A stretch of DNA of 52,787 nucleotides from a virus. Positions 3,279 through 48,353 of the stretch are shown in pieces (within the stretch, counting starts at the first letter, position 1; each line of letters opens with the position of its first letter). Location of the stretch: IMG/VR virus record IMGVR_UViG_3300002056_000004, positions 1 through 52,787 of that record; one strand, 5' to 3'. Position numbers and translations under genes: made by a program. The notes below the pieces were generated by a model that was given only the letters and a program-made list of their open reading frames with translations, was not told the DNA's origin and ran no database searches.

Positions 3279-3929
3279 ATGAACATGCGACCTAGCATTA
3301 CAGAAATTGATTGGAAACCGCGATCTTCTGACTGGACGCCTCATAACTTCCATGAGAGGCGAAAACAGCGCCAGAAAGCCTATAAACGGGCTTCTAAGGC
3401 TATAAGCAATCCACCTGTTGTGAAGGCTACGAAAGTTATTAGTCCTGAGTCTCATTCGTATGTTGCTACCTTTGTTCGCAATGCACGAGAAAAGGATCAC
3501 CAAGCAGAACTAAGGCGCATGGAGCAAGAGCGCGAGGCTGAAATCAAGGCGCTAGAATTGCATCTAGCCAAATTAAGGGATGAACAAGAATTAATCTGTG
3601 ACGCTACTGTAAAGCGAACTCTAATAAAAGACATCAAGAACGAAATCATAATAAAATACAGTCCCTATGGCGTGTCCAGAAATGACCTGACAGCCATTCG
3701 ACGTGACTGGGTTTCTTGTTTGGCGAGATATGAAGGTTTTTACCGATCTCGCAATGAGACGGGCAAATCCTACCCTTATATAGGCAAGCATTTTGGCGGT
3801 CGTGACCATACGACTGTTTTATCTGGAATCCGCAGGTATGAGCAATATCAGCGAGGTGAGTTGCCTGAAAAGTTAAAGCCATTCGAACATCTAATCCTTC
3901 CTGCTGACTACCTTGAGGAGACCTGTTAG
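3279..3929 (+). CDS. Protein with DnaA domain IV-like C-terminal HTH
   Basis: C-terminus LARYEGFYRSRNETGKSYPYIGKHFGGRDHTTVLSGIRRYE fits the Bac_DnaA_C pattern (IG..fggRDHtTVl). The N-terminal half is a coiled coil. Confidence 0.6.
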   Translation: MNMRPSITEIDWKPRSSDWTPHNFHERRKQRQKAYKRASKAISNPPVVKATKVISPESHSYVATFVRNAREKDHQAELRRMEQEREAEIKALELHLAKLRDEQELICDATVKRTLIKDIKNEIIIKYSPYGVSRNDLTAIRRDWVSCLARYEGFYRSRNETGKSYPYIGKHFGGRDHTTVLSGIRRYEQYQRGELPEKLKPFEHLILPADYLEETC

Positions 3930-4622
3930 ATGAATCGTGTTTCATGGACATGGCGACATGCGTTTGCCAGATCAGAATTATCAAGCACGACTAAGCTTGT
4001 TTTGCATACGATTGGGTTGCACATGGATGAAACAGGCCATGGAGCCTATCCAACGGTTGCGCAAATTATGCGCCTTTCAAGCTTATCAAACAAGGCTGTT
4101 ATTACTCATATAAGAATAGCAATTCAGCAAGGATGGCTGCGCTCAAAAGTGCATGGATTTAAGGGGCAAAAATGGAAAAATCACGAGTACGAAGCGCATT
4201 GGCCTGATGAAAATGGAGCTTATGAAGGTGGTGAACCTCAGTCCAATTTAACTGATAAGCTGGTGAACGTCAGTCCAAAAGGTGGTGAACGTCAGTCCGA
4301 AAAGGTGGTGAACGAGGTTCACTCTAAAGTACCAATACAACATTCCAATAATATTACCCCCCTTAGTCCCCCCAAGGGGAAAGCGCATCTTTTGCCTGAT
4401 GATTGGACGCCTTCAGAGGCAGGGCGGGATTTAGCCGTTAGTCTCGGAGTCGATTGGGTTTCAGAACTTGAGGTCTTTCGGGACTACTGGATTTCAGTGC
4501 CGGATGCGAAAGGCCGCAAAAAGAATTGGGATGCTACGTGGCGCAACTGGGTTCGCCGCTCGAAGCCTTCTAACAAAAAATCCAATTCTCAAACCATGGT
4601 GGAGGCGTTTGCAAGAGCATGA
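3930..4622 (+). CDS. Replication initiator (lambda O-like, winged-helix N-terminus) containing the origin iterons
   Basis: YPTVAQIMRLSSLSNKAVITHIRIAIQQGWL wHTH. Four iterons lie inside the coding sequence, as in lambda O. Confidence 0.6.
   Translation: MNRVSWTWRHAFARSELSSTTKLVLHTIGLHMDETGHGAYPTVAQIMRLSSLSNKAVITHIRIAIQQGWLRSKVHGFKGQKWKNHEYEAHWPDENGAYEGGEPQSNLTDKLVNVSPKGGERQSEKVVNEVHSKVPIQHSNNITPLSPPKGKAHLLPDDWTPSEAGRDLAVSLGVDWVSELEVFRDYWISVPDAKGRKKNWDATWRNWVRRSKPSNKKSNSQTMVEAFARA
4227..4322. repeat. Origin iterons, four copies of GGTGGTGAACGTCAGTCC-like 18-mers
   Basis: ggtggtgaacctcagtcc at 4227-4244, gctggtgaacgtcagtcc at 4259-4276, ggtggtgaacgtcagtcc at 4281-4298 and ggtggtgaacgaggttcac at 4304-4322, followed by an AT-rich stretch. 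Confidence 0.7.
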
Positions 4623-5521
4623 ATATTTCATTGCGTGATATTTACAGCATAAACGATGAACAAGCTCATCAAATATTGAGAAGTAGGAGATGGAATGACA
4701 ATGACGGTAATCCTGTTTGTCCTAAATGCGGTTGTCCAGACTACTACGATCTTGCAACGCGACAGGTTTATAAGTGTAAAGGCTGTCATCATCAGTATTC
4801 TGTAACTTCTGGAACGTGGTTTTCTGGCAGAAAAATATCACCTTCAGAAATAATTGGAATAGTTTTTCTTTTTGCTACTGCTAAAAAGGGTATTTCTAGC
4901 TGCCAGCTTTCAAGGACAGTAAGCATCGACCAAAAGTCAGCTTACTATATCAACGAGAAAATACGTAAAGCAATAATGCTAGAGGTTCAATCTCAAAAGC
5001 TTGATGGTATTGTTGAAATCGATGGTGCAACTTTTGGTGGACACAGAAGGCACGCTAATATGGCTCAAGACTTCTCTGGAGCGTTCAAGCGATACACGAT
5101 TAAGAAAACTAAAAATCGACGTGTCATTACAATTATGAAACAGCGTGGAGGTCGAACAGTACCTTTTATCGGCTTCAAAGAATCTGACGCCTTAGAAGCA
5201 ATTACTAAAACTGTATCCTCTGGCGCAATTATTCAAGCAGATGAGGCAAGGGCGTGGGATGGGCTTCTTCGGTTATATGACATGATGCGAATTAAGCACT
5301 CTTATGCTTTTTCATCAAACCAAGCTTGCACCAACAACGCTGAAAGTTTTTTCGCTCAAATGCGAAAGGCTCATAGTGGTACTTTTCAGCAAATTTCAGG
5401 CGACAAGTGGGACCAATACGCTTGTGAAATTGCTTGGAAGCGTGACCACACTAAACTGTCAGCAATCGAGCAAACAGCAAAAATACTTGACCTTTGCTTA
5501 CAGCAGAAAGAGGCGGCATGA
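4619..5521 (+). CDS. IS1595/ISXO2-type transposase-like protein embedded in the replication operon (no IRs)
   Basis: Zn-ribbon CPKCG..CKGCHH. DDE-type core VEIDGATFGG / IIQADEARAW / NNAESFFAQMRK, parallel to the bona fide IS copy at 10265. ATGA start/stop overlaps with both neighbours. Confidence 0.7.
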   Translation: MNISLRDIYSINDEQAHQILRSRRWNDNDGNPVCPKCGCPDYYDLATRQVYKCKGCHHQYSVTSGTWFSGRKISPSEIIGIVFLFATAKKGISSCQLSRTVSIDQKSAYYINEKIRKAIMLEVQSQKLDGIVEIDGATFGGHRRHANMAQDFSGAFKRYTIKKTKNRRVITIMKQRGGRTVPFIGFKESDALEAITKTVSSGAIIQADEARAWDGLLRLYDMMRIKHSYAFSSNQACTNNAESFFAQMRKAHSGTFQQISGDKWDQYACEIAWKRDHTKLSAIEQTAKILDLCLQQKEAA

Positions 5522-6081
5522 CACAAGCACCAGCAATTTATTCCATACAGCCGATTAGCCGAGAAAGCGCAAAGCGTCATATCGCTTCGATGTTTGTCGG
5601 TCTTCAAAGCCAAGACAAGGGCGGTCTGAATGATGCACTCGTAGCAAACTACCTTGAGGCGGTTGCGGACATTCCAGAATGGGCAGTTGAGCAAGCTACC
5701 GAAATGTATCGCACTGGCAAGCGTGGAAATGGTCGTTTCGTTCCCATGGGTGCTGAATTGGCGAAATGCGCTCGTGAACTTGTCGATGCCAAACAACAGG
5801 ATAAATTGGAAAAACAAAGACGCAAACACAATGCAATGAAGTTATCTCATCAGATTTCGGAGCGTAAGCGTTTGGATGATTTTCACGCTGGCAAAACAGA
5901 CGATAGCCGTAATCGCGTTCGTGAACTTTTGGAAAAGACAAAAACCAAACTCACAGCAGATCAGGAAGCAATGGCTTATCAATCAACACAGCCAGAAATT
6001 TTAACACGAACTCACAAGCGCTTCGCACCGCAAGCAAGGGCTTCGCTACTCAAATCACTTTCACAACAAGGAGGCCAATGA
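5518..6081 (+). CDS. Hypothetical replication-module protein
   Basis: ATG at 5518 overlaps the upstream TGA (ATGA). The longest ORF starts at 5494. The C-terminal half is K/R/E/Q-rich. Confidence 0.55.
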   Translation: MTQAPAIYSIQPISRESAKRHIASMFVGLQSQDKGGLNDALVANYLEAVADIPEWAVEQATEMYRTGKRGNGRFVPMGAELAKCARELVDAKQQDKLEKQRRKHNAMKLSHQISERKRLDDFHAGKTDDSRNRVRELLEKTKTKLTADQEAMAYQSTQPEILTRTHKRFAPQARASLLKSLSQQGGQ

Positions 6082-6344: not shown

Positions 6345-6594
6345 AACACAGAAACAGCAAATCCTTGAATACATGAAACAGGGTAACGCAATCACGGCAA
6401 TGGATGCTTTGGGTATGTTCGGTTCGTTTCGCCTTGGAGCGCGTATCTATGACTTGAAGGAAGATGGATATGAAATCGGCAAGCGCATGATCCAGGTTAA
6501 TTCCGGCAAATGGGTTGCTGAATACTGGCTTAAATCAGAGATGCGATCTGGTGGGGATTACGTGCCAACTGCCAAAGAAAAGGTTTCTCAATAA
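6337..6594 (+). CDS. Small winged-helix DNA-binding protein (HTH_39-like)
   Basis: ITAMDALGMFGSFRLGARIYDLKEDGYEI resembles the small phage wHTH family. GGAGG lies 6 nt before ATG 6337. Confidence 0.5.
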   Translation: MSETQKQQILEYMKQGNAITAMDALGMFGSFRLGARIYDLKEDGYEIGKRMIQVNSGKWVAEYWLKSEMRSGGDYVPTAKEKVSQ

Positions 6595-7337
6595 TGGAAA
6601 AACTCAAGGTGCTAGACCTTTTTAGTGGCATAGGCGGATTTTCGTTAGGGCTTGAACGCACAGGTGGTTTTGAGACGGTTGCGTTTTGCGAAATAGACCC
6701 ATTTTGTCAAACAGTATTAAAAAAACATTGGCCAGAGGTTCCGATTTATGAAGATGTTACCAAACTTGAATTTAGCGAATCCGTGGACTTGGTTACAGCA
6801 GGTTTTCCCTGCCAAGACATTTCACTCGCTGGAAAAGGTGCCGGATTATCAGGGGAGCGTTCTGGTTTGTTCTGGCAAGTCATACGCACCGTTCGCATGG
6901 TGGGACAGCCAAGATTATTGCTGGAGAACGTGGCAGCATTGCTTAATCGAGGGGCTGGCTCGGTATTCGGAGCGTTGGCCACGGTCGGGTATGATGCGGA
7001 ATGGCATTGCATACCAGCTTGTTACGTTGGCGCCTGGCATAAGCGGGACAGAATATGGATACTTGCCGACACCGGATGCCAGCGGGATGGCAAAAGGAAG
7101 CCCCAAAAACCGATATTACGGCAGCAAAACCTATCGGGGGAATTTGAGGGAGTATTTACGAAATGGCCCGGACGATCCAATTTGCCCTCACCCACGCTTC
7201 ACAGAGGAAATAATGGGGTTTCCAAAGAACTGGACAGCCACGGAAACGCAGTAATCCCTCAAATACCTGAAATCATTGGAAACGCTATTTTAACTTCATT
7301 GGATTACGTGCCAACTGCAAGGGAGGCGGGAAAGTGA
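6594..7337 (+). CDS. DNA (cytosine-5)-methyltransferase; frame-A ORF, possibly disrupted or dual-coded (see findings)
   Basis: Motif I DLFSGIGGF, motif IV GFPCQD, motif VI ENV, motif VIII GAWHKRDRIWILA and motif X GNAVIPQ are all in this frame. Motif IX is missing from this frame. Confidence 0.75.
   Translation: MEKLKVLDLFSGIGGFSLGLERTGGFETVAFCEIDPFCQTVLKKHWPEVPIYEDVTKLEFSESVDLVTAGFPCQDISLAGKGAGLSGERSGLFWQVIRTVRMVGQPRLLLENVAALLNRGAGSVFGALATVGYDAEWHCIPACYVGAWHKRDRIWILADTGCQRDGKRKPQKPILRQQNLSGEFEGVFTKWPGRSNLPSPTLHRGNNGVSKELDSHGNAVIPQIPEIIGNAILTSLDYVPTAREAGK
6748..7254 (+). other. 168-codon +1-frame ORF nested in the C5-MTase gene, carrying MTase motif IX-like sequence
   Basis: Reads ..WPRSGMMRNGIAYQL..YLPTPDASGMAKGS..HPRFTEEIMGFPKNWT. 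The RxxTxxExxxMGFPxxW string is the canonical C5-MTase motif IX and ends just before the frame-A GNAV. Confidence 0.45.
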
Positions 7338-9958: not shown

Positions 9959-10213
9959 CGGAATGGCAACACAAGGTAAGGCCAAAAATAGCTAAGGGTT
10001 CGGTGATTCTTTTTTGCAAATCATCTTTATTTTTTGTATTATTATCATGTAATCGCGTGGCATGGATTAAACAGTTAATATCACTGCGACCTAAGACCTG
10101 ACAACAGGCTGGCGGGGTTGATCACCCGCTATAGTAATTACCCATCGTTTGCGTGTCATTCGATCCATGATTTAATTCATGCGGAAAGCTAACAAATAAA
10201 GGTAATTATCCCC

Positions 10214-10242
10214 TTGACATACGTAAGCTAATTTCCTATATT
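10214..10242 (+). promoter_or_regulatory. Transposase promoter overlapping the left IR
   Basis: TTGACA (10214-10219), 17 nt, TATATT (10237-10242), then AGGAGA SD before ATG 10265. Confidence 0.6.
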
Positions 10243-10264
10243 TTAGGCATAGGAGATAGCAACA

Positions 10265-11128
10265 ATGAAACCTGCAAACGTTCGTCAATTCTTTCAACAG
10301 TTCCCTACAGATGAGATATGCCTAGAACACCTTTTCAAGGTTCGTTTTGGTCAAGGTCATACCTGTTCAAAGTGCAAGAAAAAGTCGAACTGGTATCGTA
10401 TTCAGGCTGAACAAGCTTTCTCTTGCCAGTGGTGCGGTCACCACCTTCACCCTATGGTTGGCACTATCTTTGAAAAGAGTTCAACACCGCTTCAATTGTG
10501 GTTCTTTGCTATATTCCTATTCACCACCACCCGTAATGGCGTATCTGCCAAGGAATTGGAGCGCCAGCTAGGTGTTACCTATAAGACTGCATGGCGCATG
10601 GGTCACAAAATACGCGAACACATAGCGGCAGTCGATGGTGACGATATGCTTGGTGGTGTTGTAGAAGTCGATGAAACGTTTGTCGGTGGTTACAAAAAAG
10701 GCGGTCAAGGTGGTAAGGGTAAGGACGTTGTTCTTGGTATGGCTGAAAAGGGTGGCGATATCGTTACCGAAGTCGTTACAGGTAGAACTTCGAAAGACCT
10801 TATCCCTCACATTGTTGACCATGTAGAACTTGGTTCGGAAGTACATACTGACGAACACCGCTCCTATCTTATCCTAAGTGAAACTGATGATTACGAACAC
10901 AAGTCAGTTGACCACTCCAAAAAGCAATATGTTGGCGCTACAGGCGAAACAACAAACATGATTGAAGGTTTCTTCTCACAATTGAAAAGAACAATTGGTG
11001 GCACTCATATTTGGGTATCTGGCAAGTATCTTGCAAACTATGCCAAGGAATGCGAATACCGCTTTAATCGTCGGAAGTCGCCAGCTTCGATGTTGCCTGA
11101 GTTGTTGACGACTTTTCCGAAGCCTTAA
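10265..11128 (+). CDS. IS1595-family (ISXO2-like) DDE transposase
   Basis: Zn-ribbon CSKCKK..CQWCGH. DDE core VEVDETFVGG / VHTDEHRSY / NMIEGFFSQLKR. Confidence 0.88.
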   Translation: MKPANVRQFFQQFPTDEICLEHLFKVRFGQGHTCSKCKKKSNWYRIQAEQAFSCQWCGHHLHPMVGTIFEKSSTPLQLWFFAIFLFTTTRNGVSAKELERQLGVTYKTAWRMGHKIREHIAAVDGDDMLGGVVEVDETFVGGYKKGGQGGKGKDVVLGMAEKGGDIVTEVVTGRTSKDLIPHIVDHVELGSEVHTDEHRSYLILSETDDYEHKSVDHSKKQYVGATGETTNMIEGFFSQLKRTIGGTHIWVSGKYLANYAKECEYRFNRRKSPASMLPELLTTFPKP

Positions 11129-11221
11129 TCACAAAATCAATCGCATCGGTATCGCCAGTTAATTGCTGGCGATCCTTGATGAACTTATCGAGTTGTCCTG
11201 AATTTCTAGCTTGATTTAGGT

Positions 11222-11587
11222 TCATTTTTTTGCCGCATCCGCCTCTAATATTTTAAGTATTCTTTCTAATTGCTCTGCATTTTTTTCTGAACGCACAGTT
11301 AATCCTGAGGCAGACAACCCTCCATCAAACCTATCACCCGCAAACGACATTACAGCAATCATTATTCCCAGTATTGCTACAGTACTTGTCACCCCTGTTC
11401 CAATAATTAGCCAAAAGTTCTGACCTTTCATTTCGGCTAACTCTTTAGCAATTTGAGATTCAGCGGTTATCATCGAGTTTTGAACATCCTTTCTTACCAA
11501 TTCTAGACAAGCATCAAGCTCTCGTCCAGTTACGTAGTCTGAATTATTCATATTTTCGACGATTGGTTCAGAACTGGTATCAGTCAC
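11222..11587 (-). CDS. IS passenger gene 2: coiled-coil protein with one TM helix (XhlA-like topology)
   Basis: 121 aa. N-terminal helical region, TM segment FWLIIGTGVTSTVAILGIMIAVMSF, short charged tail. Overlaps passenger gene 1 by 8 nt. Confidence 0.6.
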   Translation of the reverse strand: MTDTSSEPIVENMNNSDYVTGRELDACLELVRKDVQNSMITAESQIAKELAEMKGQNFWLIIGTGVTSTVAILGIMIAVMSFAGDRFDGGLSASGLTVRSEKNAEQLERILKILEADAAKK

Positions 11588-11897
11588 GGGTACGTTTCCC
11601 CCGTTTAGTTGTGTACCCTAGCGCATGCATTGAAAATTGGTCAATCTTACCACAACTTCTGCACTCAACAAAAATTAAGGGAGTAACTTTATTATTAACA
11701 TGATAGTCTTGAGGTATGCTAAATGTAACCCCTGTATAGGGTATAGGATGAATAAAATGCTCCCCTGATTGGCCACACCATTTACATTCTTTGTTGCCAT
11801 TTGGAAACAGCTGTTTCTGCATCGACTTAATAATAGACTCAGAAAGTTTTAGAGGATTTTCGCCACTCAAGTCTGGCACTTTTAATTCTTTAACCAA
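11580..11897 (-). CDS. IS passenger gene 1: small zinc-ribbon protein
   Basis: 105 aa. TTG start 5 nt after GGGAGA. Two CxxC pairs (CKWCGQ .. CRSCGK) and a basic C-terminus. Confidence 0.55.
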   Translation of the reverse strand: MVKELKVPDLSGENPLKLSESIIKSMQKQLFPNGNKECKWCGQSGEHFIHPIPYTGVTFSIPQDYHVNNKVTPLIFVECRSCGKIDQFSMHALGYTTKRGKRTRD

Positions 11898-12288
11898 TTC
11901 GATCTCCCAGGTATTTGAAAGTATTTATGAATTGAATCGTGCGTTGCGTCAACTACCTATGCCAAGGGGATAATTACCCAAATAAACAAAAAGGCTTCCA
12001 ATACTCCTTCGCTGAGTTGGCAATGTTGTTCTGCGAAGTTCTGTAATGATTTTGGGGAATCTTCGCCCTGATTATCTAGTCCTGTTAATTCAGGCGCATT
12101 GAGCCAACCGACTCGCTAACCAAGCCCCGTCATTCCTTACCAGAGTGGCGGGGTTATTCATTACAAGGGATGCACGGGAAATAGCTTCAACAAAAACAAT
12201 CGTGGGTTTTGCATAAATCGTTTCGCTTACGTAACAATTCTGATATAAACATATATGCATATTCGTTTTCTCAAAACTGCGAGGCGTT

Positions 12289-47462: not shown

Positions 47463-48353
47463 TTAGTTAGAAAGTTTCAATAGTTTGATTGCATCAAAAT
47501 CCTGGACACCACCGCCAACGCGCTTGGTTGTATAGAACAAGACATAAGGCTTTGCTGAATAAGGATCACGCAATACGCGAACGCCTGCACGGTCAACAAT
47601 CAAATAGCCACGATTGAAATCACCAAAGGCAATCGGTGTTGTACCTCTGCCAATATCTGGCATGTCCTCAGCTTCCACCACGCCAAAGCCCATCAAACTT
47701 GCAGCCTGCCCTGCTGCGGCAGGCACCTGCCATAGATAGTTGCCATCGACATCCTTAAGCTTTCTGACTTCCGCTTGCGTTTTACGGTTCATGACCCAAT
47801 TGGCATTTTGGCGATACCCTGCCTTCAAGGAATAAACTAGGTCAATTAAAGTATCACACTCTAGCTTGCCGCTAACCGTGCCCAGATTACCCCACGACCA
47901 ATTATTTTCATCCGCCGTTGGATGGGTCAGGAAACCACGCGGTTTGTTAACCCCGTCACCATTGATAAAGGCAGCACTTTCCTGTTCTGCGAAAGCCTGC
48001 TCCACTTCACTTGCTATCCAGGCATCGACATCAACTGCAGCATCATCCAGGAGTTGTGAAGTCGCTGCCGGCATTGCGTAAAGCTCCATTGTAGGAAACT
48101 GCAATTCATGCGTTGCTGATACGGGTTTTTTGAAATCATTGTTAGAAGTTTTTGTAATACCAGAAATAGACCTTATTGGAGATGCTGCCAATAATGCTCT
48201 ATCAATCTCTCTATCAGCCTCTACAGGAATCAAAAACCCGCTATCTATAGCCACATTATTTGGTATCGCTTTAGCTTCGATTGCGCGAAGATTTTCTTCG
48301 ATCCCCTTTCGTATGTAATTCTCAAAGGCCTGTTTATGGTCTGTAGACATCAT
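47463..48353 (-). CDS. HK97/GTA-type major capsid protein paralogue lacking the delta (scaffold) domain
   Basis: AFENYIRKG..ELYAMPAATSQLLDDAAVDVDAWIASEVEQAFAEQESAAFINGDGVNKPRGFL..LIDLVYSLKAGYRQNANWVMN..LMGFGVVEAEDMPDI..IAFGDFNRGYLIVDR..VLRDPYSAKPYVLFYTTKRVGGGV: the Phage_capsid pattern in only 296 aa. Confidence 0.8.
   Translation of the reverse strand: MMSTDHKQAFENYIRKGIEENLRAIEAKAIPNNVAIDSGFLIPVEADREIDRALLAASPIRSISGITKTSNNDFKKPVSATHELQFPTMELYAMPAATSQLLDDAAVDVDAWIASEVEQAFAEQESAAFINGDGVNKPRGFLTHPTADENNWSWGNLGTVSGKLECDTLIDLVYSLKAGYRQNANWVMNRKTQAEVRKLKDVDGNYLWQVPAAAGQAASLMGFGVVEAEDMPDIGRGTTPIAFGDFNRGYLIVDRAGVRVLRDPYSAKPYVLFYTTKRVGGGVQDFDAIKLLKLSN

Follow-up and report, generated by a model that had tools for sequence, protein, structure and literature searches.

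An end-less clade of ISNha5-type IS1595 transposase homologues in phage early operons, with features that suggest a selfish or accessory nuclease

To our knowledge, prokaryotic DDE transposases normally depend on the ends of their element, and conserved lineages without ends have rarely been described in bacteria or phages. Domesticated transposases include PiggyMac, TnpA-REP and the TnpB-derived regulators. The features of the IS1595 family have been set out in PMC8101967, which also describes Merlin ORFs without TIRs. A literature search (limited for subscription papers) turned up no account of IS1595 transposases lacking ends in the operons of phages. Free-standing homing endonuclease genes of phage T4 overlap their neighbours and cut the adjacent gene (PMC2988022); such genes cluster near essential genes (PMC10448857), and the nucleases act on the adjacent gene at a distance and carry flanking DNA along with them (PMC2988022, PMC10448857). 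The homing-endonuclease families listed in PMC6083498 include no DDE transposase. Helicase loaders such as lambda P, SPP1 G39P and VdhL are encoded right after an O-like initiator gene (PMC11087808).

The window (the whole stretch of DNA analysed, 52,787 nucleotides) is a phage record of 52.8 kb, complete and bounded by direct terminal repeats. It encodes a repressor and a tyrosine integrase, its layout is lambdoid, and the named relatives of its genes are alphaproteobacterial. The early right operon contains, in order, a DnaA_C-type HTH gene, an O-like replication initiator gene (3930-4622, + strand), the ORF of interest (4619-5521, + strand) and a 187-aa ORF (5518-6081, + strand); HTH_39, methyltransferase and other genes follow. 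The initiator has an HTH_36 N-domain, a DnaT-like C-domain and a conserved terminal KKS..EAF peptide. Four iteron-like direct repeats (4223-4314, + strand) lie within it and mark the probable origin; their motif is also found in locus L002. No DnaB helicase and no DnaC/IstB-type loader was found in the window, and for this reason the phage probably borrows the helicase of its host, as lambda does. Elsewhere in the record, a C5-methyltransferase-like ORF (6594-7337) is overlapped by a long +1-frame ORF (6748-7254), and a capsid-like ORF (47463-48353, - strand) lies in the early left operon, adjoining the integrase.

The ORF at 4619-5521 encodes a 300-aa protein, P0001. It matches Zn_ribbon_IS1595 (E 9e-14) and DDE_Tnp_IS1595 (E 2e-27), and its NF033547 score exceeds the cut-off of that model. 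The Zn ribbon (4652-4795, aa 12-59) includes C34, C37 and C53, which are invariant across the alignment of the clade described below. It is followed by an HTH region (4841-4990, aa 75-124) with a recognition helix at about aa 102-112, and by the DDE catalytic core (4997-5446), in which D135, D208 and E242 are encoded at 5021-5023, 5240-5242 and 5342-5344; all of these lie on the + strand. The protein contains the motifs VEIDGATFGG, QADEARAW and NNAESFF. The fold of an AlphaFold model (pLDDT 86) matches transposases and integrases, and neither a loader fold nor an AAA+ domain was found in it. At the left junction, GCATGA (4617-4622, + strand), the stop of the initiator overlaps the ATG of P0001. 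At the right junction (5507-5521, + strand), a GAGG ribosome-binding site lies within the C-terminal KEAA codons and is followed by a GCATGA which overlaps the ATG of the next gene. An earlier note, made from the letters of the window alone, had described this ORF with its three domains and three motifs, and its ATGA overlaps at 4619-4622 and 5518-5521; that description is accurate.

The window also contains an intact IS1595-family IS (10201-11978, or 10193-11986 as a wider span; + strand), which the earlier note rightly took for a bona fide element. It has 25-nt IRs, an 8-bp TSD (CAAATAAA), GGTAATTAT-type ends and, on the minus strand, two passenger ORFs, and it is the only IR and TSD pair in this genome. 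Its transposase (10265-11128, + strand) is 26% identical to P0001 and falls in a different subgroup. At this identity P0001 is not a second copy of that element, as had been supposed, and duplication of the IS transposase can be ruled out.

Canonical relatives of P0001, to which it is about 40-45% identical with the same catalytic residues, have CGG-type ends and form passenger-bearing elements of 1.5-8 kb, which places them in the ISNha5 group; we take both the group name and the CGG-type end motif to be those of the IS1595 classification (Siguier et al. 2009). Elements of this kind, complete with ends and passengers (methylase-like, HTH and toxin-antitoxin-like), occur in viral contigs (L013-L018), a route by which the lineage of P0001 could have entered phages. 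One of these contigs, L017, carries a pair of canonical ISNha5-type transposase genes (3650-4612, and from about 7138) at a distance of 3.5 kb from each other.

The canonical relatives served as controls in the search for ends, which makes a negative outcome meaningful. An IR with an 8-bp TSD was found in 26 of 36 canonical loci with long flanks, one of the 26 (L041) being spurious. A local search around 4619-5521 gave no IR and no TSD, no such pair lies within 6 kb of it, and none was found in the clade loci tested. An end profile was then built from the control ends (consensus CGGCATTATGTAGCAAACGCAC). At a threshold of at least 15 bits it recognised 74 of 81 canonical control loci, true ends mostly scoring 18-35 bits; its best score across the whole window is 11.7 bits. 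Near the gene, neither the profile nor the cryptic-end tests found anything in 11 clade loci, of which only four offer flanks of 4 kb or more in both directions and one (L158) was covered by the profile scan alone. The profile gave isolated scores of 14.5 bits in L007 and 16.0 bits in L158, both at a distance of 8-10 kb from the gene. The absence of IRs and of a target duplication claimed in the earlier note is thus borne out by local, paired, profile and cryptic-end searches. There is also no 2-8 kb element with passenger genes around P0001: the variable unit is the ORF alone, and the control elements measure 1.5-8 kb. In place of an 8-bp TSD there is only the 6-nt GCATGA of the start/stop overlaps, which is within the range of ordinary junctions.

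The closest homologues of P0001 (43-66% identity) form a separate group. In a careful tree of 29 rows, rooted on ten canonical transposases and made after a quick large tree, this group is an 18-member clade with support of 100/99. A profile search over 5.8 billion clusters added one member only, so the clade, at 18 clusters, is small. No member was found outside phage-like DNA among the other bacterial, viral and metagenomic loci fetched, and none is present in the cultured-phage collection; a plasmid search returned matches of at most 42% identity, and a single-protein scan of viral contigs and a narrow loader scan gained nothing. The genes are single-copy, with no identical copies. No decayed copies were seen, in searches which favoured full-length ORFs.

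All 11 of the contexts that were read (these leave out P0005, P0007, P0008, P0010, P0012, P0020, P0022 and the basal P0035) are early or replication operons of phages or prophages, in which the gene is present as an ORF only. In eight of the 11 it lies directly beside an initiator gene, and the initiators belong to several unrelated families. The order is initiator, gene, loader in the window, L001 and L002; initiator, gene in L158; and gene, initiator in L003, L008, L011 and L024. In the remaining loci the gene is found between a VRR-NUC gene and an ORF that is followed by an HTH protein and a helicase (L009), between a helicase and a primase (L010), or between HTH_39 and RusA (L007). VRR-NUC or RusA-type nucleases co-occur with the gene in several carriers, so it is unlikely that it replaces a resolvase. 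A similar ORF of 137-153 aa follows the gene in two sister lineages (L009:7105-7518 and L158:6167-6628); it has a C-terminal HTH-like segment and no PHROG match.

The clade has lost canonical traits by degrees. Its early branches retain the QYKTAF helix (L024) or the C-terminal YWQR (P0013, P0020), and later branches lose both; the N-terminal QHFLLS peptide of canonical transposases is lost in the clade. The earliest-branching members of known context (L024, L011) are already located just upstream of an initiator. P0035 (407 aa), sister to the clade, retains a QHFLLS-like N-terminus and YWQR, and its C-terminus carries a long extension; it may represent a stage between an IS and the end-less gene. 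Compared with the ISNha5-group IS, the clade shares the Zn ribbon, HTH, DDE core and catalytic residues. It differs in having no IRs, TSD or passengers, in the loss of QHFLLS, in an eroded HTH, in being single-copy and confined to phage-like DNA, and in its coupling into operons.

The earlier note placed P0001 in the slot where lambdoid phages encode a helicase loader, and found no recognisable loader, helicase or primase in the window. The second statement holds for helicases of DnaB type and loaders of DnaC/IstB type, as noted above. However, the product of the next gene (5518-6081) has a predicted fold like that of G39P. The best match of its predicted N-terminal domain among 48,161 chains is SPP1 G39P (1no1_A), at a modest Z of 6.5, with an rmsd of 2.5 A over 65 of 67 residues; Atlas and BFVD give the same lead, and the Pfam G39P model does not match. 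Loaders of G39P type beside O-like genes have been described with comparable Z values (PMC11087808). At E<=0.001 the family of the 5518-6081 product numbers 427 relatives, found directly 3' of initiators, and its synteny as the usual downstream partner of the initiator agrees with the fold. The 5518-6081 product is therefore a G39P-like candidate, and probably the helicase loader of these phages. P0001 resembles lambda P, G39P and VdhL in its position right after an O-like initiator; it differs in its transposase fold, and the G39P-like protein is encoded by the gene after it. Replacement of the loader by P0001 is rejected, as the loader slot is taken by this candidate and initiator-loader loci exist without the gene.

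Several such loci are close relatives of the window. Direct coupling of the initiator to the loader gene is seen in L155, L156, L157 and L173. The empty junction of L156 reads GGGCATA followed by the ATG of the loader, and the full junction of L002 reads GGGCATA followed by the ATG of the transposase; the two share the initiator end and differ in the next ATG, which identifies the ORF alone as the variable unit. In about 22 more distant loci the initiator adjoins a loader-like gene, none with the end-less gene, and no copy of the gene is present in the 26 related initiator-loader loci. Thus the gene is not hard-wired into the operon, as had been proposed. The earlier note had suggested a check of synteny in related phages, with sporadic presence counting against its reading; the gene is indeed sporadic. 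On the loader tree the carriers need three gains or losses, and carrier monophyly is rejected. The transposase tree joins L001 and L002 (100/99), whereas the loader tree rejects this grouping, which was named post hoc, with a p-AU of 0.0115.

The neighbouring initiators are themselves mosaic. In the window, L001, L002, L156, L157 and L173, the N-domain, the C-domain (of DnaT-like or RKPLT type) and the terminal peptide have been swapped independently. Unrelated initiator families end in a KKS....EAF-like peptide just before a G39P-like gene (window 4572-4622, L155, L156, L173, L174-L194), which suggests that the peptide may be a short loader-docking motif travelling with the loader. A DNA pattern for this C-terminal peptide had 13 matches, none with the end-less gene.

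The active site has been retained throughout. D135, D208, H227, N239, E242, R249, Y267, E270 and W273 are the same in each of the 17 clade members compared, so the conservation of catalytic residues that the earlier note had proposed to check is complete for the D, D, E triad. Around the first aspartate, mean identity is 78% in the clade and 75% among canonical transposases. The HTH is different: its mean identity is 39% in the clade versus 72% in canonical proteins, and that of the recognition helix 34% versus 75%. When core identity is matched at 55-65%, the HTH is 40% identical in the clade and 69% in the canonical set. Values of dN/dS are 0.09-0.19, with dS near saturation, and indicate purifying selection. 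The gene is better conserved (65-71%) than the neighbouring loader (39-51%). Its GC content is below that of the flanks in all 11 loci, by a mean of 6.6 points; for canonical transposases the mean is 3.0 points below.

Sequence comparison thus shows that an ISNha5-type transposase gene lost its IS ends and passengers once, in a phage. Its descendants are bare, translationally coupled ORFs at gene boundaries in early or replication operons, and they are patchy among close relatives. The domesticated transposase proposed in the earlier note stands to that extent: the gene is IS-derived, belongs to an end-less phage clade, is under purifying selection and has an intact active site. The proposal fails for replacement of the loader or an obligatory part in the replisome. 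Like PiggyMac, TnpA-REP, the TnpB-derived regulators and the Merlin ORFs, it is a conserved transposase gene kept without ends of its own; unlike them it is found in phages, is optional rather than fixed, and has intact catalytic residues. Overall, the end-less clade gene fits better as a selfish or accessory phage nuclease than as an essential replication protein.

Within this description, we put the probability that the protein is a selfish free-standing nuclease, which spreads in the manner of a homing endonuclease, at roughly 0.4. The more particular version, in which a DDE transposase has given up end-dependent transposition, had its HTH retargeted and turned into a homing-type endonuclease that cuts the replication region of rivals, is offered a little more tentatively. 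Behind both stands one pattern: a bare ORF, coupled to its neighbours and next to an essential gene, that is patchy and GC-poor, with its nuclease core kept and its DNA-binding module shifting. The protein would still be a metal-dependent nuclease, expressed from the early operon via translational coupling. Beyond expression, the steps are ones that we infer. The nuclease would nick or cut the initiator/origin region of a gene-less related phage, either co-infecting or resident as a prophage; recombinational repair from the carrier would then copy the ORF into the rival, in many cases together with the 3' half of the initiator next to it, and the changes in the HTH would represent retargeting. 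The three carriers with the gene in the initiator-loader slot have the DnaT-like C-domain in common, whereas the C-domains of the four close empty relatives are of other kinds, the outcome expected from co-conversion.

The likeness to T4 seg/mob and F-CphI lies in a bare overlapping ORF by essential genes, sporadic presence, and separate DNA-binding and nuclease modules; P0001, a bare ORF between genes, has both occupied and empty alleles among related phages. The difference is the DDE transposase core, in that the catalytic domain is DDE_Tnp_IS1595 and not that of a known homing family. As a rule, DDE transposases cleave only once two ends have been brought together in a synapse, which counts against homing. 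The rarity and deep divergence of the clade, the lack of decayed copies and the low GC of canonical transposases also weigh against it. Further, colinear phage recombination, or ordinary mosaicism alone, can mimic the retention of the slot, the tree conflict and the shared C-domain.

It is possible, and rather less probable than homing, that the protein is an optional domesticated helper of replication or recombination, docking on the initiator or on branched DNA and of benefit in some hosts only. Its nick near the origin might supply a 3'-OH for a switch from theta to rolling-circle replication, or it might trim intermediates by a disintegration-type reaction. In every context read the gene is in an early or replication operon, even in the earliest branches among them, and purifying selection and its conservation relative to the loader also speak for a helper; loss of HTH conservation would fit a loss of sequence specificity. 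Complex prediction of P0001 with the C-terminal part of the initiator scored 0.59, against 0.18 for the best control; the runs agreed to at least 92% and the partner pLDDT was no lower than 73. This weak pass would point to docking. However, it should be noted that of 80 solved complexes only 7 passed in the range up to 0.60, where both passing mismatches also lie, so a weak pass is more often wrong than right. The DnaT-like C-domain adjoins the gene in 5 of 11 clade loci and is missing from the other six, and it occurs in 108 cultured-phage records of the collection without clade members. Close relatives with the same loader do without the gene. In the window and L002 the iteron motif is common and the cores are 78% identical, yet the recognition helices are 27% identical; this argues against reading of the iterons by the recognition helix, and iteron recognition by the HTH is unsupported. 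The co-occurring VRR-NUC or RusA-type nucleases and a GC content that stays under that of the flanks also speak against a helper.

P0001 might have remained a transposase, using ends that escape recognition or working in trans, but this is improbable. In one form of this explanation the ORF alone would insert at GCATGA stop/start overlaps, its start and stop being borrowed from the duplicated target; in another, a solo enzyme would mobilise end-bounded cassettes of the host or phage. The intact triad is as expected of an active enzyme, and the junctions are suggestive: GCATGA is present at both junctions in the window, repeats of 9, 9 and 10 nt flank the gene in L001, L003 and L010, whereas 9 nt or more are reached by 4 of 69 null pairs of ATGA junctions, and (A/G)TGA occurs at the stop of 9 of 11 clade genes against ATGA in 9 of 51 canonical genes. 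However, ordinary genes also reach 9-10 nt, and across loci the repeats share only the GCATGA core, with no fixed 8-bp register. GCATGA is accordingly rejected as a TSD, as unproven, and the repeats fit better as microhomology at coupled junctions, so that a cryptic element keeps a small probability. The two ends of the ORF match each other in inverted orientation no better than shuffles do, the helix that should bind the ends is eroded, and the gene is single-copy and known from phage-like DNA only. The sole IR and TSD pair of the window belongs to the other IS, and no candidate for a trans-mobilised cassette was found in its genome.

About as improbable, and if anything slightly more so, is an early nuclease directed at the host, which would damage host DNA or interfere with resident IS or defence systems, be unrelated to replication, and owe its position to early expression. 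Catalytic conservation with relaxed specificity, sporadic presence and a low GC are all typical of conflict genes and would suit such a role; it leaves the eight placements directly beside an initiator unexplained, and PADLOC gave no match for P0001. Finally, a neutral leftover of an IS whose ends were lost, carried along passively in the operon, would account for a dispensable and rare gene, but is very improbable and already largely refuted by the selection signal, given 18 intact ORFs at about 47% mean identity with an invariant active site and maintained end coupling.

P0001 is neither an IS nor a loader, and it does not belong to any known homing family. Annotation pipelines would label the genes of its clade as ordinary IS transposases. 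The clade shows a stepwise loss of IS features with the active site kept, and a probable helicase loader of these phages has been identified along with it. As the same operon has been identified both with and without the gene, both the homing and the helper readings are directly testable. If the protein is a replication helper, it would be a case of phage domestication of an IS enzyme. If homing is true, the clade would represent a new route from transposon to selfish nuclease, with a naturally retargeted DDE nuclease, and a family of homing nucleases with the core of a transposase, absent from the family list of PMC6083498.
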